Source: an uncultured Rhizobiaceae bacterium
GTDB taxonomy: Bacteria > Pseudomonadota > Alphaproteobacteria > UBA828
NCBI GenBank assembly: GCA_964623955.1
Contig: CAZUVO010000005.1
Coordinates: 1-43,330 of the forward strand
Direction: 5' to 3'
DNA: 43,330 nucleotides
The translations under genes and the position numbers were made by a program. The notes under the pieces were generated by a model. That model worked only from the letters and a program-made list of their open reading frames with translations. It was not told the origin of the DNA and searched no databases. This document shows positions 3,070 to 43,165 of the stretch, piece after piece. Every line of letters begins with the position of its first letter. The first letter of the stretch is position 1.

Positions 3070-3077
3070 GCGGCGCC

Positions 3078-4979: not shown

Positions 4980-4988
4980 GCCCGGCCG

Positions 4989-6472: not shown

Positions 6473-6488
6473 GCGGAAAAACAGGCGT

Positions 6489-8659: not shown

Positions 8660-8665
8660 TGCAAA

Positions 8666-16087: not shown

Positions 16088-17680
16088 ATGTCGCAAATAG
16101 CTGATCTATTGGAGGCGTATTACAGAATCGGGCAGCGGAGGTCCGAATCGCCCACTGCGCTATTTCCGTCCCAGAGATCCGATGTATCGCAAGAACTAAA
16201 CCGGCTTTGGGGAAAATATTCTCAGGAATTAAAAATTCTTTCGGATCATTTGGGCACGCAATATAAAAAGAAGATGCCCCAGGGTTTGTCGGGAGGATGC
16301 GGTGATCTGGAAGGGGAATTGCTGTATATATTGATTCGGAAATTGAAGCCTGAACTCATTTATGAGATATCGCCAAATACGGGATTTTCGACGAATTATT
16401 TACTTGCAGCGGTTACGGAAAATAAGTCAGGCCGGATAGAGGGGTTTGAAATAATTGAAGAAATAGATGGCGTATCGATAAATGAAATTGTATATGGGAA
16501 ATTATTACCGATATGCGACAAAGAGAGATATCACCTTAATGTCGGAGACGCTCGAATCAACTCGCTAGAACGTATTACACAGCAAGCGCCGGATTTTACT
16601 TTGATCGATTCCTGCCATGACGATTTTTTTGCAGAATTTTATGTGAAGGAATTATTTCCTCGCTGCTGCGGAACAATTGTCATGCAGGATATTGCTCACT
16701 TCGATCCGCGGCCGGAATGGTCGACAGAAGCCTATTATGTTCTTTCCTATTTGCAAAAAACCGCCAGCGAGTATCTGTTGTTCGGCGACTATGAAGATGC
16801 GTTGTTTAACAATAGCGCTCGCGACGAATTCTCCGTTCGCCGCCCCTGCAGAAGCAATTGCATCGTCGTCTCGCTCGGCGACGCGCCGGTGACGTCGGAG
16901 CCGGCGGAAAGATTTCTCGGCTATCTAAGTGGCGAGTCGGAGCCGGGCGATGGCATGGCGTCCGCATACCCTCTGACTTTCGAAATTCTTGGGGGAACGT
17001 TGCGCCGATCGTTCCCGTCGGAAGATGCACGGCCCGAGGACGATTATGTCGCCGCGATGACGGCCGATCAGTGGCGCGCCGGCAGCCCGGCATTCGCGGA
17101 TATGCTCGCTCTCTCGCTGGGCCGAACGTCACTGAAGGGGGCGCCTCCGGGAGAATTGGCCCAGGCGGCGCAATCCTTCGATGCCACCCAGCGCGTATTG
17201 GCGCTCGAAGCTTTGGCACGCGCGGGCGCGCGGGACGATATGAAGACGATCCTCTCCACGGTCGAGAATGACCCGCCGCGCGGGGGTGAGTTGCACCTGC
17301 GCATCGCGGAGACCGCATTGCGGCTCGGGTATCGTGCCGAGGCCGAGCGTTGGGCGGAGCGGGCGCATGAGAATTCGAAGGATTTAAGCCTGGCGGTCGG
17401 TTATCGTCATTCGATGCAGGCGGCGCGCATATTGTTGCGTTTGGGCCAAGCGGCGAGGGCGCGCAGTTTTTTCAGAGAAGCGCTGGAAGGATTGACCCGG
17501 CGCCATGACGACGTCATGGCGAAGGCCAGCGCGGAGGCTTTTGCGATCGCGCTGCGCCATCCCGTCTTTCTGCCCATCGCTCTCGGATCCGGCATCGATA
17601 AAGGCGCTATCATGGTGGCGGCGAAATCCCTTATCCGATCGATTGCGCGAAAGGTCGCGAGAAAAATTCTTGCCGCATGA
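16088..17680 (+). CDS. Fusion protein: N-terminal class I SAM methyltransferase-like domain (Methyltransf_24/CmcI-like) plus C-terminal Ala/Arg-rich helical-repeat (TPR-like) domain
   Basis: 'LIYEISPNTGFSTNYLLAAVTENKSGRIEGFEI' and 'LIDSCHDDFFAEFYVKELFPRCCGTIVMQDI'. C-terminal part: 'LRIAETALRLGYRAEAERWAERAHE...LLRLGQAARARSFFREALE'. Base composition switches from AT-rich to GC-rich near 16850. Confidence 0.55.
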   Translation: MSQIADLLEAYYRIGQRRSESPTALFPSQRSDVSQELNRLWGKYSQELKILSDHLGTQYKKKMPQGLSGGCGDLEGELLYILIRKLKPELIYEISPNTGFSTNYLLAAVTENKSGRIEGFEIIEEIDGVSINEIVYGKLLPICDKERYHLNVGDARINSLERITQQAPDFTLIDSCHDDFFAEFYVKELFPRCCGTIVMQDIAHFDPRPEWSTEAYYVLSYLQKTASEYLLFGDYEDALFNNSARDEFSVRRPCRSNCIVVSLGDAPVTSEPAERFLGYLSGESEPGDGMASAYPLTFEILGGTLRRSFPSEDARPEDDYVAAMTADQWRAGSPAFADMLALSLGRTSLKGAPPGELAQAAQSFDATQRVLALEALARAGARDDMKTILSTVENDPPRGGELHLRIAETALRLGYRAEAERWAERAHENSKDLSLAVGYRHSMQAARILLRLGQAARARSFFREALEGLTRRHDDVMAKASAEAFAIALRHPVFLPIALGSGIDKGAIMVAAKSLIRSIARKVARKILAA

Positions 17681-17729
17681 GAAGCTTCCGGCGACGAACC
17701 GTCGAAGACCAACTTAAATATAGGGGTAC

Positions 17730-17760
17730 GGGCTAAGGTTCCGGCTACGGAATTTAGCCC
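17730..17760 (+). terminator. Stable hairpin 50 nt after the fusion gene stop (terminator-like, no U-tract)
   Basis: GGGCTAAGGTTCCG-GCTA-CGGAATTTAGCCC forms 7 bp, a G.U pair and 5 bp with one bulged G and a 4-nt loop. Confidence 0.3.
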
Positions 17761-17805
17761 AACAATAAATTCGGCCAGTTGTTACGTTTTCTTGAGGTTA
17801 AACAA

Positions 17806-18783
17806 ATGCCAAGAAGAATAATTGGATATTTAAAACTTAAGATATCCCAGAGTTCGTATAAATTTCTTACCGGATTGGCCCGCCAGCAAAAGATAAAAGC
17901 ATTGGCGCCTTCTTTCTTACGCAAGTTTGTTTCTAAACACATTGTCAAAAAAGTGGTCGATATTTACGATCGCGAGCGGCTGCTGCAACGGGTCGACGAG
18001 AAGACAATTTTGCTCGCCGATTACCCACGCTGCGGCATCGCATGGGTGCGTTTCACCATGGCGACGGTCTTGCATTACCGTACGAATAATGAATTCCGAA
18101 AATTGACGTTTCCGGAATTGGGAAGTTATTGTCCCACTATTCACAGCCATGGCGAGTTCGACCCTATTTATTTTAATGACGGGGTCAGCTTCATAAGGAC
18201 CCATTCGCACTATTATCCGGAATATCGCCGCGCGATCATGATTTATAGAGATCCGTTCGAGGCGATCAAATCGCTTCATACCCATGAAAGCTATACCCTT
18301 GACGATGTTGATTTTGAGCTGTCCTACGTGTCCAGGCGGGAGGGGCATGTGCTTTCGGGTGAAAAATATGAAGGCTTGTCGGAGGACGAATCATTTCTCG
18401 TCTATTGGAGCAACCAGTATGTGATTCATCATGAAACATGGATTACGGCAATTAACCCACGCCCGGACGATTTTCTGATTGTCAAATATGAGGATATGCT
18501 TGAGCGGTGCGCCGACCTACTGCCTGCCATGATTTCGTTTTCGGGGCTTGACCAGCCGCCTTTGACGCAAGATCAGATATCCACGCTTGCCGGCATGTAC
18601 ACCCGGCGCCACGCCAATTGGAGATCGGATGACGATATCGCCTATCGCGACAAGAATTTTCACCGGCTTGAGAACATCATGTGTCTCAGCGAATTGGAGC
18701 GATTAAATCAGGGCCTTGCACGCCGGATCGAGAATATTTTCGCGCAACTTGACGCGCTGCGCCATCGGCCGCGGCAGGGCTGA
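17806..18783 (+). CDS. Sulfotransferase-like protein, paralogue 1
   Basis: 5'-PSB-like loop 'YPRCGIAW' (cf. PKSGTTW). 3'-PB-like 'IRTHSH...IMIYRDPFEAIKSL' (cf. RNPxDxxxS). 'VKYEDMLERCADLLPAMISFSGL' (cf. YEDL....FLG). AT-rich codon usage. Confidence 0.6.
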   Translation: MPRRIIGYLKLKISQSSYKFLTGLARQQKIKALAPSFLRKFVSKHIVKKVVDIYDRERLLQRVDEKTILLADYPRCGIAWVRFTMATVLHYRTNNEFRKLTFPELGSYCPTIHSHGEFDPIYFNDGVSFIRTHSHYYPEYRRAIMIYRDPFEAIKSLHTHESYTLDDVDFELSYVSRREGHVLSGEKYEGLSEDESFLVYWSNQYVIHHETWITAINPRPDDFLIVKYEDMLERCADLLPAMISFSGLDQPPLTQDQISTLAGMYTRRHANWRSDDDIAYRDKNFHRLENIMCLSELERLNQGLARRIENIFAQLDALRHRPRQG

Positions 18784-18839
18784 CAATCGCGGAACCTATC
18801 GTATGGCAGTCGAAGCAACGTGAAAGCCCGGCAGGTAGA

Positions 18840-19841
18840 ATGATAAGGTTTCTCATACGCGGCATTACCAGGCGTCTCTATTTCCTCCTCATGAGGGCCG
18901 CCCATCAACAGAGGTTGAAGGCCGCGGCGCCCCGGTTTGTGCGCAAATTTATTTCGCGCATTGTCGTCAGGGCCGTCGTCGACACCTATGACCGCGAGCG
19001 GCGGCTGCAGCGGGTGGATGACGACACCATATTGCTGGCTGATTTTCGCCGCTGCGGCGTGGCGTGGTTGCGATTTGTCCTGACCACCGTGTTGCACTAT
19101 CGCGCCACGGGGGAATTCCGCAAACTTGCGCATCAGGAGTTGGAAAACTACTGCGCCACGATTCATGGCCACGAGAAGTTTTCCCCTTATTACTTCAACG
19201 ACGGCACTTCTTTTCTAAAAACCCATTCTCATTTTTATCCTGAATTCCGCCGGGCGATCATGATTTATCGTAACTCTTATGAGGCGATAAAATCGCTTTA
19301 TACCCAAGAGAGCTACACGCTAAACAATATTTCCCAAATGTATAATTTTGACCTGTTTCGCGGCACGGACCGCGAGAAAGTGCCGCTATCGGGTGACAAA
19401 TATGAAGGCCTTTCGGTGGATGAATCATTTCTGGTCTATTGGTCGGCGGAATATGTCAGGCATCACGAGACCTGGCTCGCGGCGATTCGAGAGCGTCCCG
19501 ACGATTTTCTCGTGTTCAAATATGAAGACATGCTCGACAATTGCGCGGCGCTTCTGCCGGCAATGATTTCCTTTGCAAAATTGGATGCGCCGCCTCTGAC
19601 CGGGGAGCAAATATCGGCGCTTGCCGGCATGTATACGAGAAAATACAGCAATTGGCCGAAGGACGAAGACTTGAGCTATCGCGACAATAAATTTTCCGAA
19701 CTTGAAAACGTTATCAGCCCGCGCGAATTAAACCGTCTCAACGCAGCACTTGCGCGGCGCATCGAAGAAATCCATGCCGAGCTCGACGATGTGCGGCAGC
19801 CGATAATGGCCTGTTCCCCGGCGATGACCGCGCAACATTGA
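18840..19841 (+). CDS. Sulfotransferase-like protein, paralogue 2 (tandem duplicate)
   Basis: Collinear with paralogue 1 over nearly the full length: 'FRRCGVAW', 'LKTHSH...IMIYRNSYEAIKSL', 'FKYEDMLDNCAALLPAMISFAKL'. By eye roughly 60% identical. Confidence 0.6.
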   Translation: MIRFLIRGITRRLYFLLMRAAHQQRLKAAAPRFVRKFISRIVVRAVVDTYDRERRLQRVDDDTILLADFRRCGVAWLRFVLTTVLHYRATGEFRKLAHQELENYCATIHGHEKFSPYYFNDGTSFLKTHSHFYPEFRRAIMIYRNSYEAIKSLYTQESYTLNNISQMYNFDLFRGTDREKVPLSGDKYEGLSVDESFLVYWSAEYVRHHETWLAAIRERPDDFLVFKYEDMLDNCAALLPAMISFAKLDAPPLTGEQISALAGMYTRKYSNWPKDEDLSYRDNKFSELENVISPRELNRLNAALARRIEEIHAELDDVRQPIMACSPAMTAQH

Positions 19842-24470: not shown

Positions 24471-25436
24471 ATGACAGAAGATAATTACGGCCTCCCGCCC
24501 GAGCGGCTCATCGCGCTCTATAGATCCGTCGTTCGGATTCGCCGGGTGGAAGAGGAAACCGCCAAAATCTATCCGAGCGATCTGGTCAAAAGCCCCATTC
24601 ATTTGTCGATCGGCCAGGAGGCGGTGTCCGTCGGCGTGTGCGATATTCTCGAGCCCGAGGATATCGCTTACGGGACCTATCGCGGGCACGCGCTTTATCT
24701 CGCCAAGGGCGGCGACCTGAAGGCGATGGTCGCGGAATTGTTCGGCCGTGAAACAGGCTGCGCCGGCGGCAAGGCGGGTTCCATGCACCTGGTCGATCCC
24801 GCCGCCAATGTGATGGGCATGTCGGCCATCGTCGCCACCCATATACCGCTCGCGGTGGGCCACGCCTTCGCCGTCAAGTCGAGGGGTCTGGCGGCGATCG
24901 TGGTTTGCTTTTTCGGCGAAGGCGCCGCCGACGAGGGCGCGTTTCACGAAGCGATGAATTTCGCCGCCCTGAAAAACCTGCCGCTGCTGTTCGTCTGCGA
25001 AAACAATCGGCTGGCCATCCATTCGCCGGCCGAGGACAGAATGGCGGGCCCGGGATTGGCGGCGCGGTTTTCATCCTACGGTGTCGCGGGGCGCAACATC
25101 GACGACGAGAACATTTTCTCGATCCGCGCCGCCGCCGAAGACCTGGTGGGTGAGATTCGCGGCGGCGGCGGCCCGCGCTATCTCGAATGCAGAACCTCCC
25201 GCTGGCGCGAGCATGTCGGCCCGGCGGAGGATTGGGATGCGGCTTACCGCGACGCGGCGGAAGAGCGCGCGCGGTCGGCCAAGGATCCGGTGGCGTTTCT
25301 CGCCGCGCTGTTGGATGCCGAGACGCGGGCGGCCCTGGACAGCGAAATCGCGGCGGAAATAAGCGAGGCCTTTAAATTGGCCGAGGCCGCGCCCTATCCG
25401 CCGGCGGACGCGTTGAACCATCATGTGTTCGGATAG
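24471..25436 (+). CDS. ThDP-dependent 2-oxoacid dehydrogenase E1 component, alpha subunit-like
   Basis: 'SPIHLSIGQEAVSVG', 'GKAGSMH', and the ThDP motif 'FFGEGAADEGAFHEAMNFAALKNLPLLFVCENN' (GEG in place of the usual GDG). Confidence 0.85.
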   Translation: MTEDNYGLPPERLIALYRSVVRIRRVEEETAKIYPSDLVKSPIHLSIGQEAVSVGVCDILEPEDIAYGTYRGHALYLAKGGDLKAMVAELFGRETGCAGGKAGSMHLVDPAANVMGMSAIVATHIPLAVGHAFAVKSRGLAAIVVCFFGEGAADEGAFHEAMNFAALKNLPLLFVCENNRLAIHSPAEDRMAGPGLAARFSSYGVAGRNIDDENIFSIRAAAEDLVGEIRGGGGPRYLECRTSRWREHVGPAEDWDAAYRDAAEERARSAKDPVAFLAALLDAETRAALDSEIAAEISEAFKLAEAAPYPPADALNHHVFG

Positions 25437-26487
25437 TTCCGCCGTGCGCGAGATCACCTACGGCCAAGCCCTGTTCGAGGCGACGCGCCAGGAAATGGCG
25501 CGCGACGATAGCGTCTTCGTGTTCGGCCAAGGGGTCGACGACCATAAGGGCCATTACGGCACCACGCTCAACCTGCACCGGGAATTCGGCGCCGAGCGCT
25601 GCTTCGACACGCCGCTCGCCGAGGACGCGATGACCGGCATGGCGGTGGGTGCCGCGCTTGCCGGCATGCGGCCGATCCATGTCCATCAGCGCATGGATTT
25701 CCTGCTGCTGTGCATGAACCAGCTCATCAATATGGCGGCGAAATTCTCCTATATGTTCAACGGAACCTACCGCGTGCCGCTGGTCGTCCGCGCCTCCATC
25801 GGGCGAAGCTGGGGGCAGGGGCCGCAGCATTCGCAGGCCCTGCATGCCATGTTCATGCATGTGCCCGGCTTGAAAGTCGTCGCGCCGACCACGGCGCATG
25901 ATGCCAAGGGCTGCCTCACAGCGGCGATCCGCGACAACAACCCGGTCGTCTTTATCGAGCATCGCATGCTCTATGGGCTGTCGGGTCATGTCGCGGAAGA
26001 GAGCTACGAAATCCCCTTCGGGCAGGCGCGCCGATTGACCGAGGGCGGTGATATCACCATCGTTGCGATCAGCCATATGGCGGTCGAGGCGCTGCGCGCG
26101 AGACACCATCTGCAATCCGTCGGAATATCCGCCGAAATCATCGATCCGGTCAGCCTCAGCCCGATCGATTGGGATACCATCCTGACGTCGGTGGAAAAGA
26201 CCGGGAGACTGCTGGTTGTCGACAATGGCTGGCTCAGTTGCGGCGCCTCGGCGGAAATCGTCGCGGAGACCGTCGAACGGCTGCAGGGCAGACGCGGCAT
26301 CACCGTCGGCCGGATGGGCTTTTCGCCATCGCCCTGCCCGACAACGCGGCCGCTTGAGCGCCTGTTTTATCCCAATGACCGGACCATCGCCGCGCGCGCC
26401 CACCGGCTGGTGAAGGGTGGCGACGAGTCCTGGATGCCGGCGGGCGGCGACTCCGCGGAAATCACGGAATTTCGCGGGCCGTTTTGA
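25423..26487 (+). CDS. ThDP-dependent 2-oxoacid dehydrogenase E1 component, beta subunit-like
   Basis: 'ITYGQALFEATRQEMARDDSVFVFGQGV', 'RCFDTPLAEDAMTGMAVGAALAGMRPI', 'PGLKVVAPTTAHDAKG'. 14-nt overlap with the alpha subunit. Confidence 0.85.
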   Translation: MCSDSSAVREITYGQALFEATRQEMARDDSVFVFGQGVDDHKGHYGTTLNLHREFGAERCFDTPLAEDAMTGMAVGAALAGMRPIHVHQRMDFLLLCMNQLINMAAKFSYMFNGTYRVPLVVRASIGRSWGQGPQHSQALHAMFMHVPGLKVVAPTTAHDAKGCLTAAIRDNNPVVFIEHRMLYGLSGHVAEESYEIPFGQARRLTEGGDITIVAISHMAVEALRARHHLQSVGISAEIIDPVSLSPIDWDTILTSVEKTGRLLVVDNGWLSCGASAEIVAETVERLQGRRGITVGRMGFSPSPCPTTRPLERLFYPNDRTIAARAHRLVKGGDESWMPAGGDSAEITEFRGPF

Positions 26488-26523
26488 GCATATAATAATA
26501 AGACAATCGGTGAGGTAGCGGCT

Positions 26524-27816
26524 TTGTCTTCAGACAGGAAATCGGACGACGCCCGGGCGGCGGCGCGGGACGCGCTGCGCGGCGCCATCGAACGGGGCTG
26601 GCGGCTCGAGAAGGAAAAGTTGGCCGCGGCGCGCGGCAAGCGGTTCAAGCTGCATGAGCCGACCTTCGGGGTCGATGAAATACTCGCCGCCGTCGATTGC
26701 ATGCTGACCTCCTACGTGACGATGGGAAAGCGCGTCGCGCAATTGGAGCGAATGTTCGCCGAGGTGATCGGCGTGCCGGAGGGCATCTCCTGCAATTCCG
26801 GCTCGTCGGCCAATTTGTTGGCGATCGGCGCCTTGGCGAACGGTCACACCAAGGACGGCTTGCGCCCGGGCGACGAGGTCATCGTGCCGGCGCTGGCCTG
26901 GTCGACGACGATCTGGCCGCTGGTGCAGCACGGGCTCGTGCCGGTCATCGTCGATATCGATCCGCTGACCTTGAACATCGATCCGAACGAGGCGGCGCGG
27001 GCGGTGAGCGACAAGACCCGCGCGATTCTGCCGGTGCATGTCTATGGCAATCCGTGCGACATGGATGCGCTGCAAGCCCTATGCGACCGCCACGATTTGA
27101 TCCTCATCGAAGATGTCTGCGAGGCCATGGGCGGAAGTTATAAAGGCCGGGCGCTTGGCCAGTTCGGACGGGTGTCGACCTTCAGCTTCTATTTCTCCCA
27201 TCACATCACCACCTTCGAAGGCGGCATGTGCCTGACCGGCGACGATGCGCTCGGCGATACGATGCGGATCCTGCGCTCCCATGGCTGGATTCGGGAGGCC
27301 AAGGACCAAGCGCGTTACACCGAACGCCATCCCGGCATCGATCCGCGCTTTCTCTTCGTCAATACCGGTTACAATTTGCGTTTGACGGAAGTCCAGGCGG
27401 CGGTCGGCCTCGAGCAGGTGCCGAAGCTGGACGGATTTCTGGCGCAGCGGCGGGAGGCCGCCGCCCTCTGGGAAGGCGTCTTCGCCGCCCATTGCGAGAC
27501 CCTGCAAACCCAGCGCGAGACGCCGGGCGGCGGCCATGCCTGGTTCGGCTTCCCGGTGACGGTCAAGCCCGGCGCGCCCTATTCCTGCGCGGCGGTCAGA
27601 AAGCATTTGGATGATTCCGGGGTCGAGACCCGGCCGATCATATGCGGCAATATCGCGCTACAGCCGGGCCTGCATGATTACGATTTTCGCACGGTGGGCG
27701 ATCTGGCCGCCGCCACCAACGTCATGCAAAACAGCTTTTCGATCGGCAATCATCATGCGGTCGGCGGCGAAGATGTGGACTGGGTGCGCGATCTGCTCAA
27801 TACCCTGCCGCACTGA
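26524..27816 (+). CDS. PLP-dependent nucleotide-sugar 3-dehydratase of the DegT/DnrJ/EryC1 superfamily (ColD/RfbH-E1 type)
   Basis: 'GKRVAQLERMFAEVIGVPEGISCNSGSSANLLAI', 'ILPVHVYGNPCDMD'. The active-site segment 'STFSFYFSHHITTFEGG' has His (codon 27199-27201) where aminotransferases carry the Schiff-base Lys. TTG start, uncertain. Confidence 0.75.
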   Translation: MSSDRKSDDARAAARDALRGAIERGWRLEKEKLAAARGKRFKLHEPTFGVDEILAAVDCMLTSYVTMGKRVAQLERMFAEVIGVPEGISCNSGSSANLLAIGALANGHTKDGLRPGDEVIVPALAWSTTIWPLVQHGLVPVIVDIDPLTLNIDPNEAARAVSDKTRAILPVHVYGNPCDMDALQALCDRHDLILIEDVCEAMGGSYKGRALGQFGRVSTFSFYFSHHITTFEGGMCLTGDDALGDTMRILRSHGWIREAKDQARYTERHPGIDPRFLFVNTGYNLRLTEVQAAVGLEQVPKLDGFLAQRREAAALWEGVFAAHCETLQTQRETPGGGHAWFGFPVTVKPGAPYSCAAVRKHLDDSGVETRPIICGNIALQPGLHDYDFRTVGDLAAATNVMQNSFSIGNHHAVGGEDVDWVRDLLNTLPH

Positions 27817-36051: not shown

Positions 36052-37125
36052 ATGTCATATCCCAATGTTTGGTTGCACGTTCTGAACAATGTGGCGGATC
36101 TGATCCGAAAGCCGGCCGGGGAGGCCGGCAACGAGAATTATTCCGTCGCCGCGACGGGCGCGCATGATGTTCTGTTTACCCGCAAATATCTTCGAAAGTA
36201 CGGTATTCAGACAATTTCAGACGAAGAAATGGCTACGCATATGTGTGCCGACACGGCCGAGTATCATCGGTCGAGCAGCAGACTCGCGGCACAAGTCCTC
36301 AAGGCCTATGGATATGACAGTTACGCCGATATCGATATTTACGACCGGGCCAAAATTGTTTGCGACTTGTCGGTACCCATATCGGATGAACATCATCAGA
36401 AATATGATCTCGTGATGGATATTACTTCCACTTACGTGACGAACATTATTCAATCGTACAGCAATACGTCCAGAATGACCAAAGTCGGGGGGACGAAGAT
36501 TGTCGTCACGACAATCGGCGATCACACAAATCGGTTCGAGTTAAATCCGTCGCCGAATTTCCTAGTGGATTTCCATTTGGGCAATGGATTTAGTTTTGCG
36601 CGTGGGTTCATGATCAATCCAAAAGGAACGATCCTGCCGTATCAACGCTTTGCGACTAAAGGAACGCCGGCATTTGTGCTGCTTCCGTTCGTCGATTGGT
36701 TTTTGACACTTCTGAAAACTTTAAACGCCGTGCGCATTATGCGTTCGACTATCAGAAAGGGCGAACGCATTGATTATCCTGCGCGGCAGGGAGACAGAGA
36801 ATTACCGCAGCCGGCCGAGGCAGCGAATTCAACTGACGTTGAAAAAGATTATATTGCTAGCCAGACCAATTCGGTTCCCGGATTGAGGGCAAAAACCAAG
36901 AATCATTTGAAGGCTGTTCTCGGAGATTCAATGTTCGCAAATTTTATCAGAGCGAACAGGAAATTCAGATATTTACGACGCGCCTTCCTGCACGATAATT
37001 TATGTCACGAATGGTACGCATATTTTGTATTTCATAAAATTTCCGAGGTGGATAACGCTTTCATTCACATAACTTCACACTATGAAGATCTCGATCAAAC
37101 TAAAGATAACGCCGGCAATAATTGA
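36052..37125 (+). CDS. Orphan protein, weakly methyltransferase-fold-like
   Basis: Long AT-rich ORF with a good coding look. 'YDSYADIDIYDRAKIVCDLSVPISDEHHQKYDLVMDITSTYVTNIIQSYSNTSRMTKVGGTKIVV' recalls MTase motifs II-IV, but no Gly-rich motif I is visible. Confidence 0.35.
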   Translation: MSYPNVWLHVLNNVADLIRKPAGEAGNENYSVAATGAHDVLFTRKYLRKYGIQTISDEEMATHMCADTAEYHRSSSRLAAQVLKAYGYDSYADIDIYDRAKIVCDLSVPISDEHHQKYDLVMDITSTYVTNIIQSYSNTSRMTKVGGTKIVVTTIGDHTNRFELNPSPNFLVDFHLGNGFSFARGFMINPKGTILPYQRFATKGTPAFVLLPFVDWFLTLLKTLNAVRIMRSTIRKGERIDYPARQGDRELPQPAEAANSTDVEKDYIASQTNSVPGLRAKTKNHLKAVLGDSMFANFIRANRKFRYLRRAFLHDNLCHEWYAYFVFHKISEVDNAFIHITSHYEDLDQTKDNAGNN

Positions 37126-37197
37126 TCCGACATTGCAAGAGTTTCTCTTCCAAATCATCGATAAATGAACAAAATGACTTCAATTGGTAATAAGTAA

Positions 37198-38559
37198 ATG
37201 TCAAGCGACGCCAGGACTTACTATTTTGAGCGTTTTACACCGCAGATTCTGGTGATCTCGGCGTTTGGGCCATTGTTAATCCCGAGTATGGGAGTTCGAA
37301 TAGACCAGCTGTTATTGTACGGTTTTTTGCCAATAGCGATTGGATTATTTTGTGTTGGCCGGAGATCTTTATTGTCGAAAACCACAATCTTATCGATTCT
37401 TTTCATTTTCGTTTTCATCACGGTCTGGACGCTCATTGTGACATTGGGAGGCGTGCCGGATCATGTCGGGGCATCTTATCGGACAATCGGAGATGAATTG
37501 GCATCATTTGAAAATTACCTTCAAACGATAGCTCTCATTATCGTATTGGGAGTTGCGGTAGATATTAAGAACGGACCGAAGAGTACATATCTTCTCGATA
37601 AAGTTGGATATATTTTAATCATATTTATGTGTTTAAATGCACTTGTCGCCATCAGTACTATCTTCTTTGGCCCTTCGGCTTTCGCCAAATACTTCGTGCC
37701 CGGTTATACGGGAAGTGGCGACACACCATTTGAATTGATCGCTAACAAAGGCAGGTTCACCGGAATTTTTGACGTTCCTTCGGCGGCGGGATCCGCCTAT
37801 ACAATTGCTCTAATTATTTGGGCATATCTGACTCGCAAATCAAAAATAGATTCAATTAAAAATTATATATTGGGAGGATTCTTAATCATAGGGGGAACAC
37901 TCACGATATCGAAAATATTTATTTTTGGCGGTATACCGCTGTTTATTATTTACTGGCTATTACCGGGCCGCATTAGTTCGCGCATGACATTGAAGCTTTT
38001 GGCTGTTCTGATCGCGGCCGTAGTAGCAGTAATTATTCTGGCCGAATTATGGATCGGACTTTCAACTATAGACGATCTGTTTGTAGCAAACGAAAACTAC
38101 AGACCGTCTGATTTATTATTTCATTTTATTCAAGCTCGCTACGGAACCGGAGAAAATGCATTAATTGGTGGACTCTTCTCCTATATTTGGGATGTGTCGC
38201 CCGTTCAAGGATTGGGATTTGCTTATTTAGGAGTCGCCGATAGTGCTTATCTGTTATATTTCATGGAAGGAGGCATGATCTCGCTCGTGCTTTATGGCGG
38301 TTTTATCGGTTTCGTAATTTTCCTCGGAGTGGAAGAGTGGTACCGCGGTAACGAAATCGGGCGATTGTTAGCGATCCTTGGTGGATTTGTGCTTCTGGCC
38401 GGAGTCGGAGCTCCGATCATAACGATGCCGCGGGTCGGTGTAATATTTTGGACAATAATAATTTTAGGATTGGCAGTGCGTGCGGAATCACATGCGCCGC
38501 GAAAACGAGACACTCCCCCTGCTATACAAATTGGAAACGCCAATAAGGCGCGTATATAA
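37198..38559 (+). CDS. Polytopic membrane protein, O-antigen polymerase/ligase-like (Wzy-type)
   Basis: At least 10 hydrophobic spans, e.g. 'ILVISAFGPLLIPSMGV', 'ILSILFIFVFITVWTLIVTL', 'GYILIIFMCLNALVAISTIFF', 'IFIFGGIPLFIIYWLL', 'LLAVLIAAVVAVIILAELWI', 'LLAILGGFVLLAGVGAPIIT'. AT-rich, as is typical for wzy. Confidence 0.6.
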   Translation: MSSDARTYYFERFTPQILVISAFGPLLIPSMGVRIDQLLLYGFLPIAIGLFCVGRRSLLSKTTILSILFIFVFITVWTLIVTLGGVPDHVGASYRTIGDELASFENYLQTIALIIVLGVAVDIKNGPKSTYLLDKVGYILIIFMCLNALVAISTIFFGPSAFAKYFVPGYTGSGDTPFELIANKGRFTGIFDVPSAAGSAYTIALIIWAYLTRKSKIDSIKNYILGGFLIIGGTLTISKIFIFGGIPLFIIYWLLPGRISSRMTLKLLAVLIAAVVAVIILAELWIGLSTIDDLFVANENYRPSDLLFHFIQARYGTGENALIGGLFSYIWDVSPVQGLGFAYLGVADSAYLLYFMEGGMISLVLYGGFIGFVIFLGVEEWYRGNEIGRLLAILGGFVLLAGVGAPIITMPRVGVIFWTIIILGLAVRAESHAPRKRDTPPAIQIGNANKARI

Positions 38560-38722: not shown

Positions 38723-39721
38723 CTAAGCGCGAGATGAACGACGTTTGATATTTACGATCAAAATGACGATCGCGTAGATGGCAAACGAAATTCCCAACCA
38801 GATGAGAGTTTGTTCCGGCATGAAAACCGTCAATATCCCACCGGCCGCGATGACCGACAATATGGCCGGCACCACGAAAGCGTGCGGCAAAAGCGTCGAC
38901 AGGTAATGATGAAAATGATTGTTGTCCGGTGTAAGCGGTGACACTCGCGTGGCGACGCGCATCAGGATAAGCCGCAAACAATCAAGAACCGGAAACAACA
39001 GCCAAACGACAATCGTATCGGCTTTGAGATTAGGCGTATGATTATAATTGTAAATAATCATCAGACCGAAAATGATAGATAGCGCATAGGCGCCGGAATC
39101 CCCAAGAAACAGTTTTTTGGCGAGGTTGAACCAAAACGTGACCGCCAATGCTGCGGCAAGGGTAATCAGATACCAATCCAACTCGCCAAGGTTGGTGAGG
39201 AGTAAAAGTATCGTCCAGATCAAGCCTTGTCCGATGGCCAGCCCGTCCATGCCGTCCGTCATATTGAAGGCGTAAACAAAGCCGACCGTGGCGACCATGG
39301 TAAAGGGCCAGGCCCACGATCCCAGGCTCAAGGAATAATGTTCCCAGGAGGAATGCAGAATTCCGATAATAAGCTGCGAGTCGCCGGAAAATACGCCGAG
39401 GCAGAGGGCGAAGGACAGGAACAGCCGTAGCGTCGGGCTTAAATCATGGCGGTCATCGGCGAAACCGATGAGGAAGGCGACCGCAATGGCAATGCTCAGC
39501 CTGACAAAGAAGCCCGAATCCCCATCGCTCATGGAGAGAAACAGCCCCATTCCCACCATGGGAACCGCTATCGCCAAACCACCGATCAAAGGCGTCGGTG
39601 CCTTGTGGCGTTTGCGCACGCCGTCCGGGACATCCATGATCCTGAGTTTCATGGCCAATGGCTTGGCCAGCAGGCAAATGGCGAGCGTTGCCAGAGCAGC
39701 GAGAATCGGCGCCACATACAT
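38723..39721 (-). CDS. Polyprenyl-phosphate HexNAc-1-phosphate transferase (MraY/WecA/WbpL family), initiating transferase
   Basis: 'VRKRHKAPTPLIGGLAI', 'FNMTDGMDGLAIGQGL', 'KKLFLGDSGAYALS'. Roughly 10 TM spans. Confidence 0.85.
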   Translation of the reverse strand: MYVAPILAALATLAICLLAKPLAMKLRIMDVPDGVRKRHKAPTPLIGGLAIAVPMVGMGLFLSMSDGDSGFFVRLSIAIAVAFLIGFADDRHDLSPTLRLFLSFALCLGVFSGDSQLIIGILHSSWEHYSLSLGSWAWPFTMVATVGFVYAFNMTDGMDGLAIGQGLIWTILLLLTNLGELDWYLITLAAALAVTFWFNLAKKLFLGDSGAYALSIIFGLMIIYNYNHTPNLKADTIVVWLLFPVLDCLRLILMRVATRVSPLTPDNNHFHHYLSTLLPHAFVVPAILSVIAAGGILTVFMPEQTLIWLGISFAIYAIVILIVNIKRRSSRA

Positions 39722-40129
39722 CGTCGCTACCTTGATACGATATTGCGGGTGGGTTTCGGGCTCACGGCAAATGCGCCAAATTTCAAAATCATCGGACTTA
39801 AATCACACTATATTCTTAGGGGCTTATGGGAACCCACACAAACTGTCCCTGATTAGTCTACAACATTATCGCAAAATCTTCCTACGGCGCCCATATTTCT
39901 ATGGCAAAGGAAGCGTGTTTCCTGGTACGGATTGCCGAGGCTTATAAACTCTTGATTGAAATGTATATCACAATACGCTCACAAGATGGCGATCCCCGGA
40001 CCCTTCCGCCGCTGGGATCCAGTATCTTGGTTTCCTTACTGCGGGAACATGATAAACTTGCACTTATGGGCTGTCCCATGGTTCCGTCGAAAAGCGCCGC
40101 ATTCCAAAGGCTAACGGTTACTAGGTAAA
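39722..40129. promoter_or_regulatory. 408-bp divergent intergenic region (wecA-family gene to the left, radical SAM gene to the right)
   Basis: Longest non-coding stretch in the window, AT-rich, and must hold both promoters. Contains a doubtful 75-codon ORF (39901-40128) ending 1 nt before the radical SAM ATG. Confidence 0.45.
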
Positions 40130-42253
40130 ATGACCATAAGAATCATACTGTGTGATCTTACCTACACCCAGCAAACCATATCATCCGATGTAATGCCGGC
40201 CGCAATCGGCAGTATCGCGGCTTATCTACAGGATAGTTTGGATGAGACGGTAGAAATAAAACTATTCAAGTACCCACAGGATCTTTCGAATTATCTGCAA
40301 ACAGCTAAAGCCGATGAATGGTCTATTAATATAGCGGGTTTCTCACACTATGTTTGGAATCGAAATTTATCATTGTCCTTCGCGAACATTATAAAGAAGA
40401 ATTTTGAAGATTCCGTAATTATTTTTGGCGGTCCTAATTTCCCCACGGATTTATCCGAACAGGAAGGATTCTTGAGGAAGAATCCGATTATTGACTTTCA
40501 TATCGTCAAGGAAGGAGAAAAGCCGTTCCGTCATCTCGTAGAAAATCTCATTAAATACGATTTTGATACGGAAAAGATTAGTGTCGACCAATCCAATTTA
40601 GTGTTTATCGATGGTGACGGATTATTCCAAGCAAGCGAAAAAGTCGAAAGAACATTGAATTTGGAGGAACTGCCCTCTCCCTATCTGTCCGGGTTGATGG
40701 ACGAGTTCTTTGACGGCAAGCTATTGCCTATCATTCAAACGAATCGGGGTTGCCCTTTCAAATGCACCTTCTGTACGGAAGGCATGAATCATTGGAACAA
40801 AGTCTATGCCAGCAGCCAAAACAAGATAGATAGCGAAATATACTATATATCTAAAAAAATGGTTTCCTTGGGCAGTTCCTCTCGGAGCGATTTGCATATC
40901 GCAGATTCAAATTTCGGAATGTACAAACAGGATGTGGATACTGCAAACACCTTGAGACAATCCCAGGACTTATATGATTATCCGCGCTACATAAATGTCG
41001 CGACAGGAAAAAACAAGAAGGAGCGCGTCTTAGAAGTCGCAAGAATTGTAAATGGCGCGATGAAATTAGCTGGATCCGTGCAAAGCCTGGATGAAACGGT
41101 ACTAAAGAATATTAAGCGATCGAATATTGGCGTTGACGAAATAATTGAATTGGGCAACAGCGCGGATCAGATTGGCGCGAACAGTTATAGCGAAGTTATT
41201 TTGGGGCTTCCGGGCGATACGTTAACGTCGCATTTCTCCACGATCGAGACACTCGTGGATGCTGGGTTTAATACAATTTGTATGTATCAATTTATGATAT
41301 TGCCGGGCACGGAATCGGGGTCTTTCGCGGCTCAGGAAGATTTTCAAATGGAAACGCGGTGGCGTTTGTTACCCCGTTGTTATGGCTATTTCGATGTTTT
41401 GGGTGATCAGGTAAATGTTGGCGAGGCGGAAGAAATCTGCGTCTCAACGAATAGTTTGAGCTTCGATGATTATTTAAACTGCCGAAAAATGAATTTAATT
41501 GTAAACGTATTCTATAATGATGGCGTTTTTCGGGAGCTTTTGAAATTTCTTAAATTAGAGGGAGTTTCAATTTGGGATTGGCTTCTCAGAATTTATCAAG
41601 GGATGGAAAAGCACAAACTATGGAATGCGACTCTAGAGAAATTCTTAGATGAGACAAAACAAGAATTATGGATGGATAAAGAGTCGCTGTTGGATAGCGT
41701 ACAGGATCGGGAGAATATCACCAAATATATTGAAGGGCAATTAGGTGGAAATCTCATGTTCAAATATAAGGGATTAAGTATGACCAATTGCCTGAGCGAC
41801 GTGGCCGATATCGCTCAGGAGGCGGCCATCGATGTCCTCAAGGAAACATCCCGTTGTACGCCCGATAAAGAGGCCTTTGTCGATGATATTGTGAATTATA
41901 ATTTGTGCCGGATGACCGATATCTTCGTCTTCGATCCGCAACCCACCAGTCATCGTTTTGATTTCGACATTAACAGGTTTTCCGAAGATGAATATCCGAA
42001 AGAAATTTCCGATTATCGCTATGCCGAGCCTCGGGAGATCCATTTCGAATTCGATGGTGAGCAGGTTAATGAGCTGCAGAATTACCAGAAATTATTTGGA
42101 ATATCCGAACATGGAATAAGCAGAATATTGTCCCGCGTCTATATTCGAAAAATGTTTAGACGGGCGCAGTCGGATGAAACGGGATCAGAGCAGGAAAGAT
42201 TTCTTTTGATCAAGGGGCAGGCAACATTGAGTGGTCTAAACGAGTTTGATTGA
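40130..42253 (+). CDS. B12-binding-domain radical SAM enzyme (class B-like), 707 aa
   Basis: N-terminal cobalamin-domain layout: 'IILCDLTY...IGSIAAYL...NIAGFSHYVWNRNLSLSFANIIKKNFEDSVIIFGGPNFP'. CxxxCxxC 'RGCPFKCTFC' at 40751-40774. Long C-terminal extension of about 300 aa. Very AT-rich. Confidence 0.85.
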   Translation: MTIRIILCDLTYTQQTISSDVMPAAIGSIAAYLQDSLDETVEIKLFKYPQDLSNYLQTAKADEWSINIAGFSHYVWNRNLSLSFANIIKKNFEDSVIIFGGPNFPTDLSEQEGFLRKNPIIDFHIVKEGEKPFRHLVENLIKYDFDTEKISVDQSNLVFIDGDGLFQASEKVERTLNLEELPSPYLSGLMDEFFDGKLLPIIQTNRGCPFKCTFCTEGMNHWNKVYASSQNKIDSEIYYISKKMVSLGSSSRSDLHIADSNFGMYKQDVDTANTLRQSQDLYDYPRYINVATGKNKKERVLEVARIVNGAMKLAGSVQSLDETVLKNIKRSNIGVDEIIELGNSADQIGANSYSEVILGLPGDTLTSHFSTIETLVDAGFNTICMYQFMILPGTESGSFAAQEDFQMETRWRLLPRCYGYFDVLGDQVNVGEAEEICVSTNSLSFDDYLNCRKMNLIVNVFYNDGVFRELLKFLKLEGVSIWDWLLRIYQGMEKHKLWNATLEKFLDETKQELWMDKESLLDSVQDRENITKYIEGQLGGNLMFKYKGLSMTNCLSDVADIAQEAAIDVLKETSRCTPDKEAFVDDIVNYNLCRMTDIFVFDPQPTSHRFDFDINRFSEDEYPKEISDYRYAEPREIHFEFDGEQVNELQNYQKLFGISEHGISRILSRVYIRKMFRRAQSDETGSEQERFLLIKGQATLSGLNEFD

Positions 42254-42399
42254 GCCACGGTTGGGACAACAAGCTGCGGACCGAGTTCCGTACCGGTCAA
42301 ATGGGACCGTGACAACCCAGTGGCCATTGATCCCATCGCCCAGGGACGCAAATACGGGAAAATTCCGGCCTTGACCGGCCCGTCACCACTTGATCGCCT

Positions 42400-43165
42400 C
42401 TAATCGCGTGTCTGGGACTCCGGCAATAGATTTTGGCTTCTCATCCAAGCGATCGTCTGCTCGACGCCATCCGCCAAATTTGCCGGAAGTGGGCCCGCCA
42501 CCGCCTCGATGGGCTCGAAGGGATATCGCCCGCCGTTCATCATATTGTTGAGGCGAAAACTCGTCAGATAGGGCTCCTTCCAGCCGAGTAGTTTCGCGAC
42601 GTCACCGCAGAGTGCCGCCGTTTTGAGAACCGGCATGGGAACCGACCATAGGGGCTTGCCGCCCACGGCTGTGCGAATCGTTTCGGCCCATTGCCGCGTG
42701 GTATGTTCGGGATAGTCGACGAGATAAAAGACTTTGCCGTGGACCTTTTCCGGCGGCGCCTGAAAAAGCTTATCCATCATATAGGCGCCATTGCCGACGA
42801 AGCAGGTCGGCTTAACGATATTTACTCCGCCCGGATGAAAATAGAGACCGCGAGCGACAAGCTGAAAAAAGTGAAGATAGCCTAATTCGAACCAAGGGCC
42901 CCAGGTGGAGGACGGGCGAAAGATGGACCAGGTGAAGGCGTCCCCGGCGGTGCTCCGGACGATCCGTACGCCTTCGGCCTTGCTCTCGCCATATATATTG
43001 TCCGGACAATATACATCATTCCGCGCGGGTATGTAGCCGTTGCTGCAAACCAGGGGAGATGAACCGAACAGAACGCGTTTCACGCTTGGCGTTTCTCTTG
43101 CGGCATGAACCGGCCAGGCCCCGAGAGATTGGCCTCGGGACGCAACTCGAATAGGAGCGCTCCCG
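42400..43165 (-). pseudogene. 5'-truncated NAD-dependent sugar epimerase/dehydratase remnant
   Basis: ORF 42400..43083 (GTG) begins inside the conserved core: 'KRVLFGSS...NIYGESKAEGVRIV...IFRPSSTWGPW...'. The N-terminal GxxGxxG Rossmann segment (about 90-100 aa) is absent. Weak in-frame similarity continues about 20 codons upstream without any start codon. An unrelated CDS ends at 43166. Confidence 0.55.

Follow-up and report, generated by a model that had tools for sequence, protein, structure and literature searches.

Class-B (cobalamin-type) radical SAM methylases have been described in pathways to antibiotics, cofactors, and lipids. Members of the GenK/GenD1 type, in aminoglycoside pathways, methylate an unactivated sugar carbon and so lengthen or branch its skeleton, and HpnP and HpnR methylate isoprenoid lipids (hopanoids). 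The relatives that matter most below are TokK and ThnK, sequential methylases of the carbapenem C6 position (PDB 7KDX/7KDY), and CysS, the iterative O-alkyl methylase of the cystobactamid pathway (PDB 9N1B-D). In a class-1 cobalamin domain, the lower axial site is filled by the residue that follows strand 3; in TokK, Trp76 lies beneath the cobalt of a 4-coordinate, base-off, His-off cobalamin, and a hydrophobic Trp at this place is associated with radical methyl transfer. TokK also has an active-site Trp215 and an Arg280 that anchors the substrate carboxylate, and its substrate contacts are made by the C-terminal domain. The wider group includes other chemistry: two class-B paralogues encoded in the thienamycin cluster, ThnL and ThnP, have been shown or argued to be non-methylases, and ThnL forms a thioether. 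A large and broad subfamily devoted to cell-surface sugar pathways, often in sialic-acid-like operons, is undescribed in the literature searched, which also yielded nothing connecting radical SAM enzymes with nonulosonic acid (NulO), O-antigen, or capsule (co-mentions of pseudaminic, O-antigen, or neuB terms were incidental).

Here we consider a gene that appears to belong to such a subfamily, located in a 43,330-nt stretch of DNA from an uncultured Rhizobiaceae bacterium (hereafter, the window). We favor, with modest confidence, the reading that the gene was acquired laterally and that its product is a class-B radical SAM C-methylase acting on a nucleotide-activated sugar, which may be a nonulosonic acid. 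The gene and its divergent partner are laid out as follows:

38723..39721, minus strand: polyprenyl-phosphate sugar-1-phosphate transferase, PF00953 (GT4, WecA/MraY-type), with ~10 TM segments
39722..40129, no strand: divergent intergenic region of 408 bp common to the radical SAM and GT4 genes, with AGG 5-7 nt ahead of the ATG
40130..42253, plus strand: predicted class-B (cobalamin-type) radical SAM gene of a TokK/CysS-like unnamed family, ATG start, 707 aa

The open reading frame agrees exactly with that of the original prediction, as does its divergent pairing with an initiating transferase, which proves to be the PF00953 protein across the spacer. The database version of the protein is 686 aa and begins at Met22; because the family-invariant motif D9-L-T-Y-T-Q-Q15 lies N-terminal to that residue, we take 40130 as the true start. 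Promoter and terminator scans of 39500-42600 gave matches no more numerous than in shuffled sequence, and no Rfam elements were found in the window, including the 408-bp spacer.

An AF2 model of the 707-aa protein (pLDDT 85.4, pTM 0.86), together with profile matches and an alignment of 80 homologues, divides the product into the following parts:

40130..40639, plus strand: N-terminal cobalamin-binding domain, residues 1-170, a 5-stranded Rossmann fold plus beta-hairpin in the model
40355..40357, plus strand: Trp76 codon, aligned with TokK Trp76 in a HMMER alignment to 7kdx
40718..41329, plus strand: radical SAM (beta/alpha)6 core, residues ~197-400 (PF04055, model, Foldseek)
40751..40774, plus strand: [4Fe-4S] cluster motif C208-x3-C212-x2-C215, present in 80/80 homologues
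40778..40780, plus strand: Glu217 codon, in the place of the TokK active-site Trp215 (CysS also has Trp)
41330..42175, plus strand: C-terminal, mostly helical domain, residues 401-682, counterpart of the TokK/CysS substrate-tunnel domain (Foldseek)
42176..42250, plus strand: low-confidence C-terminal tail, residues 683-707, pLDDT < 50, ending GQAxLxGLNEF

The class-B radical SAM identity is supported in silico, as had been predicted. The Pfam Radical_SAM profile PF04055 spans residues 203-365 with 34.3 bits (cutoff 29.5), and the proposed cluster motif, the C208..C215 core of RGCPFKCTFC (residues 206-215), is the one conserved throughout the family. The N-terminal segment, described earlier as a B12-binding-like Rossmann segment ending in VIIFGGPNFP (residues 96-105), likewise stands: the model strands 3-8, 41-46, 68-72, 96-101, and 123-126, with a hairpin at 157-168, agree with the description of a class-1 cobalamin domain, and the domain contains an invariant D9-LTYTQQ loop, an S72-x-Y74 motif, and the pair G100-G101 (kept in 80/80 homologues). 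Trp76, which sits after strand 3 in the model, is found in all 80 homologues. A lack of profile support for the cobalamin region had been named as a finding that would speak against the prediction. Instead, four rescanned family members pass the cutoff of the B12-binding profile PF02310 (40.7-43.2 bits against 32.1), though the query itself stays below it, at 21.5 bits over residues 16-136, and a precomputed PF02310 match is present in most homologues. Divergent to one homologue, moreover, lies a TonB receptor gene with an AdoCbl-II riboswitch. Together with the Pfam matches, this is circumstantial support for the predicted use of cobalamin.

Searches by structure and by sequence lead to the same relatives. 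Foldseek matched the model to TokK (TM 0.71/0.76 over 705 columns) and CysS (TM 0.67/0.75), with alignments of ~705-725 columns, and OxsB (TM 0.48), TsrM, and MgmA were much poorer matches than these two; the top PDB sequence matches were TokK (E 2e-36) and then CysS (E 1.4e-27). Because the model superposes full-length on TokK and CysS, its C-terminal part is the usual substrate domain of the clade. The "C-terminal extension of about 300 aa" of the original prediction is therefore real as sequence but is no extension, since TokK and CysS possess the same domain, and novelty on this count is ruled out; the accompanying suggestion that it may bind the substrate gains by analogy with its substrate-contacting counterpart in TokK. 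Conservation of the tail is limited to one subclade of the family. The top NCBIfam profile was the KedN5 family of methylcobalamin-dependent C-methyltransferases (NF033712, E 2.3e-48). Membership in that family was rejected, at 164.9 bits against a curated cutoff of 700, and the match is confined to profile positions 11-386 of 624, so that the C-terminal domain is uncovered. Other named families (Sden_1168, HpnJ/HpnR, BchE, PhpK, GenK-like, and others) scored far under their cutoffs, and the profile scans found no family-specific Pfam or NCBIfam model. The protein thus falls in a large unnamed family, present in 258 of 185,579 species genomes. Its long members owe their extra length to N-terminal extensions or to an intein, and none has an informative fusion partner domain. 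A plasmid collection yielded one full-length member only (38% identity), carried by a plasmid of Azospirillum oryzae; the glycan cluster around it is of a heavily tailored heptose type and lacks NeuB. Culturable carriers of the family include A. oryzae KACC 14407 (HUE56_RS00900), Thalassospira lucentensis DSM 14000, Pelagibius sp. 7325, and Nisaea nitritireducens DSM 19540.

To place the family in its genomic setting, we surveyed 59 non-actinobacterial and 20 actinobacterial loci of homologues; the resulting counts come from a crude home-made gene caller and BLAST clustering. Recurrent sugar-pathway gene clusters occur in 53 of the 59 non-actinobacterial loci, and the most characteristic neighbors of the homologues are the NeuB, NeuC, and CMP-transferase families: at least one lies within 10 kb in 28/59 loci, at least two in 15 loci, and in 15 loci the radical SAM gene stands in one operon-like run with NulO genes. 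The commonest immediate neighbors are CMP-transferase, SQD1-like, NeuB, and SDR genes, with SQD1-like enzymes within 10 kb in 13 loci. Such NulO genes were absent within 10 kb at the five loci of the closest homologues (55-75% identity) and at all 20 actinobacterial loci, where actinomycetes show a TauD-like/rSAM/GT28 cassette; in a pooled scan, loci free of NulO markers had neighbors characteristic of sugar-nucleotide tailoring. A marine homologue is adjoined by sulfate-activation genes, and two sulfotransferase genes are present in the window. The "glycan locus" of the original prediction therefore holds for sugar loci across phyla but can be narrowed to nucleotide-sugar tailoring, with NulO operons in about half. 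The closest characterized relatives are C-methylases. Because homologues across many phyla lie in sugar loci, the objection raised at the outset, that homologues might be consistently associated with non-glycan pathways, does not apply; the two loci L005 and L009, discussed below, are the exceptions. In the window itself, the NulO genes lie ~30-34 kb from the radical SAM gene, whose immediate neighbors are the GT4 enzyme, a Wzy-like protein, and unknowns. They are:

6345-7529, plus strand: NeuB-family synthase, candidate pathway partner ~30-34 kb upstream
7526-8659, plus strand: NeuC (TIGR03568 passed), candidate partner
9052-9759, plus strand: PseF-like CMP-sugar cytidylyltransferase, candidate partner

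Since non-methylase relatives such as ThnL and ThnP exist, methylase activity is a prediction by analogy with the characterized relatives. The same fold might instead serve a glycan pathway with different chemistry: cobalamin and the 5'-deoxyadenosyl radical could bring about a rearrangement or epimerization of the sugar, its ring contraction or dehydration, or the formation of a C-S or C-C bond, and features of the active site speak for this alternative. The TokK-clade Trp two residues past the third cluster Cys is absent, its place being taken by Glu217 (across 80 homologues, E in 73, D in 3, and W in 1), and TokK Arg280 aligns with Asn289 at a position that is variable in the family (N/H/S/Q). 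The thioether formation of ThnL and the ring contraction of the structurally related OxsB offer precedents, the loci carry a recurrent sulfur theme (the SQD1-like and sulfate-activation genes and the window's sulfotransferases), and class-I methyltransferases of ordinary type are already frequent neighbors. We nonetheless judge such chemistry unlikely: the structurally close characterized relatives (TokK, ThnK, CysS, and the KedN5 family) are all methylases, the Trp beneath the cobalt that is tied to radical methyl transfer is invariant, and OxsB is a far poorer match. Glu217 in place of a hydrophobic Trp is also compatible with a polar sugar substrate.

A C-methylase could also act off the sugar ring. 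Its target might be a side chain, acyl or alkyl (N-acetyl, O-methyl), or a CoA-, ACP-, or pantetheine-tethered acyl group later joined to an amino sugar. TokK (methyl to ethyl to isopropyl) and CysS (methoxy to ethoxy, then isopropoxy and further) both build alkyl chains on small appendages and both use pantetheinylated substrates, and enzymes for making or transferring N-acyl groups (aminotransferases, GNAT or carbamoyl transferases, KAS III, and TPP enzymes) are often encoded in the family loci. Against this, the family does not retain the TokK residues that contact pantetheine and the carboxylate, no recurrent carrier-protein gene was found among the neighbor clusters, and the top immediate neighbors are the nucleotide-sugar genes given above, so that a side-chain substrate seems improbable. 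The loss of TokK's substrate-binding residues also means that its substrate is not transferable by homology.

The gene's composition raises a further question of whether it belongs to its locus. At 41.9% GC it is indeed, as first claimed, the most AT-rich gene of the window (lowest among 32 genes measured; runner-up 43.4%), against a backbone of 60-69%, and it is accompanied nearby by

36052..38559, plus strand: two low-GC genes (46% and 43% GC), assigned to one laterally acquired island with the radical SAM gene; they encode a 357-aa protein that matches no family and a 453-aa Wzy/ligase-like membrane protein with 10 TM segments

The radical SAM gene has 41-42% GC in the window and in two further glycan loci (L006 and L007), versus 52-63% for these loci, and 37% in L005 and L009, versus 39% there. 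The latter two carry the closest native-GC homologues (67% identity), and they are flanked not by glycan genes but by EamA transporter, GST, amidase, Rieske, and CMD genes. Glycan loci are known insertion hot spots. One might thus suppose that the window gene is a laterally transferred passenger unconnected to the polysaccharide locus, with the family's real role elsewhere. However, the low-GC gene sits in the glycan loci of three independent contigs (the window, L006, and L007) with syntenic GT1 and Wzy-like genes, the family's loci are sugar-type across phyla, and the family-invariant residues are all intact, which leaves the passenger explanation highly improbable. The 357-aa gene is syntenic with the radical SAM gene in L006, and the 10-TM membrane-protein gene in both L006 and L007. 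The best reading of these compositional patterns is that, in the window, the radical SAM gene belongs to a laterally acquired low-GC island.

Modification of the polyprenyl-phosphate carrier or a lipid-linked intermediate, suggested by the divergent GT4 pairing, the hopanoid precedent of HpnP/HpnR, and weak HpnJ/HpnR profile matches, is scarcely credible given that the pairing is confined to the window, L001-L003, and L007 rather than family-wide, that the protein is soluble with no predicted TM segment, that the family's neighbors are nucleotide-sugar enzymes, and that the HpnR/HpnJ scores are negligible against their cutoffs.

We return, then, to a cytoplasmic, laterally acquired C-methylase of nucleotide-activated sugars. 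Where the original prediction allowed C-methylation or another radical modification of either a sugar or the lipid carrier, the sugar context and the C-methylase relatives speak for the former and we found nothing for the carrier. By analogy with TokK and CysS, a first SAM would methylate cob(I)alamin to methylcobalamin, and a second would be cleaved at the cluster to yield a 5'-deoxyadenosyl radical, which would take hydrogen from the substrate at an unactivated sp3 carbon; the radical left there would then accept a methyl radical from methylcobalamin, possibly repeatedly. The substrate would be a nucleotide-activated sugar produced by the surrounding locus, with the family-wide context favoring as first candidate a CMP-nonulosonic acid or its precursor, the core genes for which are found in the window ~30 kb upstream. 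Here the radical SAM gene, probably acquired from a low-GC lineage, would serve as an add-on diversifying the surface glycan. The evidence overall suggests a carbon-methylation of surface sugars, by a radical SAM family, that has gone undescribed.

We note a more specific and rather doubtful extension, that the family is the missing enzyme for chain-extended or C-branched ulosonic acids, with radical, possibly iterative methylation of a CMP-NulO at an unactivated carbon (for example, the C9 methyl that ends a 9-deoxy NulO) leading to a "C10" product. Higher-carbon CMP-linked alpha-keto acids of unassigned structure and biosynthesis have been reported from Magnetospirillum gryphiswaldense (Kleikamp et al. 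2020, PMC8157484; SugarBase preprint 10.64898/2026.04.20.719630), and such a methylation would explain these orphans. The text and supplements of preprint 10.64898/2026.04.20.719630 mention no radical SAM or cobalamin genes, Magnetospirillum was not found among the best 80 of the 258 carrier species, and no Maf/Magnetospirillum link was found in the literature searched. The family supplies a concrete candidate gene for the unexplained higher-carbon ulosonic acids, and, if this extension held, sialic-acid-like sugars would be seen to vary in a new way that is widespread among environmental bacteria, SAR11 and SAR116 included.

Were the broader reading correct, C-methylation at unactivated carbons would join the toolkit by which bacteria diversify their surface glycans, with consequences for recognition by phages and the immune system, for serotyping, and for the hypervariable glycan islands found in abundant marine bacteria, and glycan structure would come to depend on vitamin B12 supply. 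The family also offers, for the biocatalytic alkylation of sugars, a new scaffold that is TokK-like and polar in its active site.

Set beside the known systems, the family is closest in build to TokK and ThnK, with which it shares three domains (including the class-1 cobalamin domain with its hairpin and the helical C-terminal domain) and, with TokK, the Trp beneath the cobalt. It differs from TokK in sequence (only ~20-30% identity), in the replacements Trp215 to Glu217 and Arg280 to Asn289, and in lacking the contacts for TokK's pantetheinylated substrate; the TokK and ThnK genes lie in a beta-lactam cluster, whereas those of the family lie in surface-glycan or nucleotide-sugar loci, and a gene of the ThnK type on the megaplasmid of S. 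cattleya has 27% identity over just 61% of the query. CysS has the same architecture and the Trp after strand 3 but carries Trp past the third Cys (C-F-W) where the family has Glu, and it acts on a pantetheinylated aminobenzoate in a natural-product cluster rather than in sugar loci. The KedN5 family is similar across the cobalamin and radical SAM domains, over which its profile matches. GenK and GenD1 act on antibiotic pseudo-oligosaccharides and belong to other class-B subfamilies, with similarity to the query undetected in profile scans. The functional analogue in glycan and deoxysugar loci is the TylC3-type NDP-hexose C-methyltransferase (Methyltransf_13/14), three genes of which directly adjoin family members: it, too, introduces C-methyl branches into nucleotide sugars, but with an unrelated fold and by polar chemistry at an activated carbon (alpha to a keto group), whereas class-B radical SAM enzymes can reach unactivated carbons.

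The radical SAM gene stands at the 3' end of the window, beside the gene for an initiating transferase:

40130-42253, plus strand: 707-aa class-B (cobalamin-type) radical SAM protein
38723-39721, minus strand: upstream neighbor, an initiating transferase of PF00953 (WecA/MraY-type) with 10 TM
42176-42250, plus strand: disordered C-terminal tail of the radical SAM protein (residues 683-707, pLDDT below 50), ending GQAxLxGLNEF

As the original prediction had it, the reading frame begins at 40130 and encodes 707 aa, the two genes are divergently paired (408 bp between them), and the radical SAM gene is the most AT-rich, its 41.9% GC being the lowest of 32 genes measured (next lowest 43.4%; backbone genes 60-69%). 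Both predicted motifs are likewise in place, 'VIIFGGPNFP' at residues 96-105 and 'RGCPFKCTFC' at residues 206-215, with 40751-40774 spanning the C208-x3-C212-x2-C215 core; the protein has no hydrophobic segments. The ATG at 40130 is the right start: the family-invariant D9-LTYTQQ-15 lies upstream of Met22, the start of the 686-aa database call. Public gene calls are N-terminally truncated (P0001, at L001 6344, 686 aa; P0007, at L006 10001, 595 aa); by tblastx and family alignment, P0001 and its 75%-identical relative P0007 are both full-length, at about 707 aa. The tail is strongly conserved in the window's subclade and missing from most of the wider family, actinomycete members included.

Pfam Radical_SAM is matched above its cutoff (34.3 versus 29.5 bits), and DUF4080 weakly. 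The predicted cobalamin-binding region found partial support from profiles: the query scores 21.5 bits, below the B12-binding cutoff of 32.1, whereas four family members pass that cutoff outright. In NCBIfam the query comes closest to the KedN5 family (E 2.3e-48), whose members are methylcobalamin-dependent radical SAM C-methyltransferases; all other named class-B families in the scan score far lower. Membership in KedN5 itself was rejected, at 165 bits against a 700-bit cutoff and with only the N-terminal 60% of the profile matched. Among solved structures, the only meaningful sequence matches are the sequential C-methylases TokK (E 2e-36, residues 67-493) and CysS (E 1.4e-27). AlphaFold2, given an alignment of 25 family sequences, produced a confident model (mean pLDDT 85.4, pTM 0.86), whose best Foldseek match is again TokK, over the full length (TM 0.71/0.76, 705 columns), followed by CysS (0.67/0.75), with OxsB, TsrM, MgmA and AprD4 far lower. 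This match is not memorized, since both structures were deposited after the AlphaFold2 training cutoff. The C-terminal sequence of about 300 aa noted earlier is present but is not an extension: because the model superposes on TokK and CysS throughout, it corresponds to the third, helical domain of their clade. In TokK, the C-terminal and cobalamin domains together form the substrate tunnel.

The N-terminal domain of the model, five Rossmann strands and a beta-hairpin, is a 'class 1' cobalamin domain as described for OxsB, TsrM and TokK. Just after strand 3 stands Trp76, which aligns with TokK Trp76, a residue 3.8 A under the cobalt that TokK has in common only with ThnK and CysS. W76, G100-G101 and the three cluster cysteines are kept in 80/80 homologs, distant actinobacterial ones included. 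In contrast, TokK active-site Trp215 (Trp in CysS too) is replaced here by Glu217 (E in 73/80 homologs, D in 3/80), and the TokK carboxylate anchor Arg280 by Asn289, at a position variable among homologs. Judged from these residues, the protein keeps the cofactor machinery of the sequential-methylase clade, and its predicted pocket is different and more polar.

A word-indexed search returned 3827 relatives at E<=1e-5. The top 120 are mostly about 700 aa, 44-75% identical, and unnamed or generically named, with query coverage of 78-100% (95% or more in all but two). When the 50%-identity representatives were searched exhaustively, 1151 clusters reached E<=1e-30; each of the best 150 is at E<=1.3e-94 or better, and most match essentially full-length. 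Two family-specific peptide patterns located relatives in 258/185,579 species genomes, among them SAR11, SAR116, many Rhodospirillales (Azospirillum, Thalassospira, Nisaea, Pelagibius, Tagaea, Telmatospirillum), Beta-, Gamma- and Deltaproteobacteria, Nitrospirae, Planctomycetes, Acidobacteria, Bacteroidetes, CPR bacteria, one archaeon and about 20 Streptomyces/Nocardia. In one member, P0222 (930 aa), an intein with an HNH endonuclease is inserted between the cobalamin domain and the radical SAM core.

About 80 loci (the best among 258 rather than a random sample) were gene-called, all neighbors within 10 kb clustered, and recurrent clusters annotated. Genes were called by a simple method based on ORFs and GC frame and clustered by BLAST, and the results were checked against database calls in three loci. 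Partner counts from the all-locus clustering, window included, were:

27 loci: NAD-dependent sugar epimerase/dehydratases
23 loci: PseF-like CMP-sugar cytidylyltransferase
20 loci: NeuB-family synthases
15 loci: radical SAM-SPASM proteins
14 loci: fused ABC exporter
13 loci: NeuC, passing TIGR03568
13 loci: SQD1-like enzyme
13 loci: PGDH-like 2-hydroxyacid dehydrogenase
13 loci (12/59 non-actinobacterial): second B12-binding radical SAM protein, unrelated to the family
12 loci: DegT aminotransferases

The association of homologs with glycan loci is thereby borne out: 53/59 non-actinobacterial loci hold at least one recurrent sugar-type cluster, 28/59 have a nonulosonic acid (NulO) marker (NeuB, NeuC or CMP-transferase) within 10 kb, 15 loci have at least two, and in 15/59 the radical SAM gene shares a same-strand run with such markers (gaps under 300 nt). 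The recurring order in alpha- and deltaproteobacteria is NeuB, NeuC, 2-hydroxyacid dehydrogenase, CMP-transferase, SQD1-like, radical SAM. Genomes carry at most a few NeuB-family genes, so a random 20-kb stretch would be expected to contain one roughly 1% of the time. In database annotation, the P0022 locus holds two NeuB, two CTP_transf_3, SPASM, radical SAM, DegT and glycosyltransferases; a planctomycete locus, heptose genes, epimerases, UDP-Glc dehydrogenase and a Wzx flippase; and the P0007 and P0002 loci, GT1, PMT_2, GT4 and epimerase. An Azospirillum oryzae plasmid locus has carbamoyltransferases, GNAT, three more radical SAM genes, methyltransferases and heptose genes. The 150 nearest neighbors pooled from loci without NulO markers are mainly radical SAM, class-I and TylC3-type sugar C-methyltransferases, SDR, RmlD/epimerase, DegT, NTP-transferase, carbamoyltransferase and TPP enzymes. 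Actinomycetes have the gene in a TauD-like/radical SAM/GT28 cassette, with no NulO genes in 20 actinobacterial loci. Clear exceptions are L005 and L009 (67% identity), whose neighbors are transporters, GSTs and an amidase. L009 (CAYRUX010000117.1) is labeled an uncultured Rhizobiaceae MAG, yet its 39% GC and near-synteny with the marine contig L005 indicate that it is probably mis-binned. A 475-aa protein without Pfam or NCBIfam match (L012 7311-8738) adjoins the radical SAM gene in 4 loci and occurs in 9 in all.

The entire window is one large glycan locus:

1286-3069: split transketolase
3078-3914: 2OG-Fe(II) oxygenase, 'sporadic carbohydrate cluster' (TIGR04324, 312 bits versus cutoff 150)
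5918-6472: WbuC cupin
6345-7529: NeuB, below equivalog cutoff
7526-8659: bona fide NeuC
9052-9759: PseF-like CMP-transferase, below equivalog cutoff
9817-11514: 565-aa soluble protein directly after it, no Pfam/NCBIfam match, family in 5 loci
16088-19841: low-GC patch (48-54%) with a 530-aa protein of unknown family and two tandem sulfotransferase-domain genes (17779-18783 and 18840-19841)
24471-27816: E1alpha/E1beta thiamine-diphosphate pair, then an RfbH-like DegT (323 bits versus 423 cutoff)

The 5' block (1286-9759) matches the NCBIfam 'sporadic carbohydrate cluster' and includes a class-I methyltransferase and an RmlD-like reductase; an AsnB-like protein and a GT1 follow the 565-aa protein at this end. 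The middle adds a GT1, WecB-like and UDP-sugar dehydrogenase genes, four SDR/epimerases and a GHMP kinase, and the 3' end a GT1, a 357-aa protein without assigned family, a 10-TM Wzy/ligase-like protein, the PF00953 transferase and the radical SAM gene. The low-GC patch points to a sulfated glycan and to a second lateral insertion, the 565-aa and 475-aa families may be NulO transferases or additional tailoring enzymes, and the E1a/TK-C/DegT/epimerase set could produce an N-acyl sugar that is branched or unusual. That set also occurs beside radical SAM homologs in about 7 other loci (L050, L075, L076, L083 and L087 among them). The contig L001, the same DNA as the window (2 mismatches in 9.5 kb), continues the locus with a 227-aa protein without family match, DUF218, an epimerase/dehydratase and a second B12-binding radical SAM gene. 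In the window and in L006 and L007 (loci 52-63%), the radical SAM gene has 41-42% GC, against 37% in L005/L009 (39% GC genome); the gene for the Wzy/ligase-like membrane protein (453 aa) accompanies it in both L006 and L007, as does the 357-aa gene in L006. This GC contrast and the co-travelling genes mark it as part of a laterally acquired island within the locus.

Two further features bear on cobalamin:

L092 2806-2884, minus strand: AdoCbl-II riboswitch (85.8 bits), preceding a TonB-dependent receptor
L001 11391-12947: second B12-binding radical SAM protein, 518 aa, HpnJ/BchE/ApyD-like

The latter lies about 2.9 kb past the window's 3' end, four genes downstream of the radical SAM gene. With such second enzymes in 12/59 loci and SPASM proteins in 15, radical SAM enzymes are unusually abundant in these glycan loci. 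In L092, the riboswitch-controlled receptor is divergent from a marine homolog, downstream of which lie cytidylate kinase, ATP sulfurylase, APS kinase, a sulfatase-like gene, GT61 and an ABC exporter. The UDP-sulfoquinovose-synthase-like (SQD1-like) enzyme (458 bits versus cutoff 575; L049 8719-9876) is the immediate neighbor in 5 of its 13 loci, within operons of NeuB, NeuC and CMP-transferase. This enzyme, the sulfotransferases and the sulfate-activation genes together form a sulfur theme around the family.

This sulfur theme speaks for the first rival to methylation, a non-methylase cobalamin-radical chemistry, as does the occurrence of such chemistry among relatives (ThnL/ThnP). A second rival keeps methylation, in the manner of CysS and TokK, and directs it to an appendage (acyl or alkyl) or to an acyl unit that is tethered; the sugar-pathway neighbors are to be set against it. 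A third, that the gene is a passenger without tie to the locus, has to be weighed against the 53/59 loci with sugar-type clusters. Modification of the lipid carrier, also proposed originally, found no support.

Computationally, the protein is soluble, has the cluster motif, cobalamin domain and architecture of its clade, and stands in a sugar-pathway context. These support the predicted radical modification of a sugar: very probably, the protein is a class-B enzyme tailoring a surface-glycan precursor. That it is a methylase we favor with less assurance, by analogy with TokK and CysS. SAM would methylate cob(I)alamin; a second SAM would yield a 5'-dA radical that abstracts H from an unactivated carbon; and the substrate radical would take CH3 from MeCbl, possibly repeatedly. 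From context, the substrate would be a nucleotide-activated sugar, with CMP-nonulosonic acid or one of its precursors the likeliest; a polar substrate would also agree with Glu217. For the window, whose NulO genes lie 30 kb from the radical SAM gene, a NulO-type substrate is a tentative assignment. The combined reading stands slightly better than an even chance.

Sugar C-methylation by class-B enzymes has a precedent in GenK of aminoglycoside pathways. In the literature searched, we found no paper tying radical SAM enzymes to nonulosonic acids, other co-mentions being incidental. Magnetospirillum gryphiswaldense is reported to contain CMP-linked alpha-keto acids whose marker fragment indicates a C10 backbone (Kleikamp et al., PMC8157484; SugarBase preprint). 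Their CMP-sugar masses, m/z 679.198, 693.214 and 707.230, differ by CH2 steps, and genes for their biosynthesis are not proposed there. A TokK-like methylase of NulO operons, common in Rhodospirillales, is a candidate for these acids, albeit an unlikely one, and a route from heptose plus PEP would account for them just as simply. As for known enzymes, its score below the KedN5 cutoff and its departures from the TokK active-site residues place the protein outside any named family, while in the proposed mechanism it would work like TokK and CysS.
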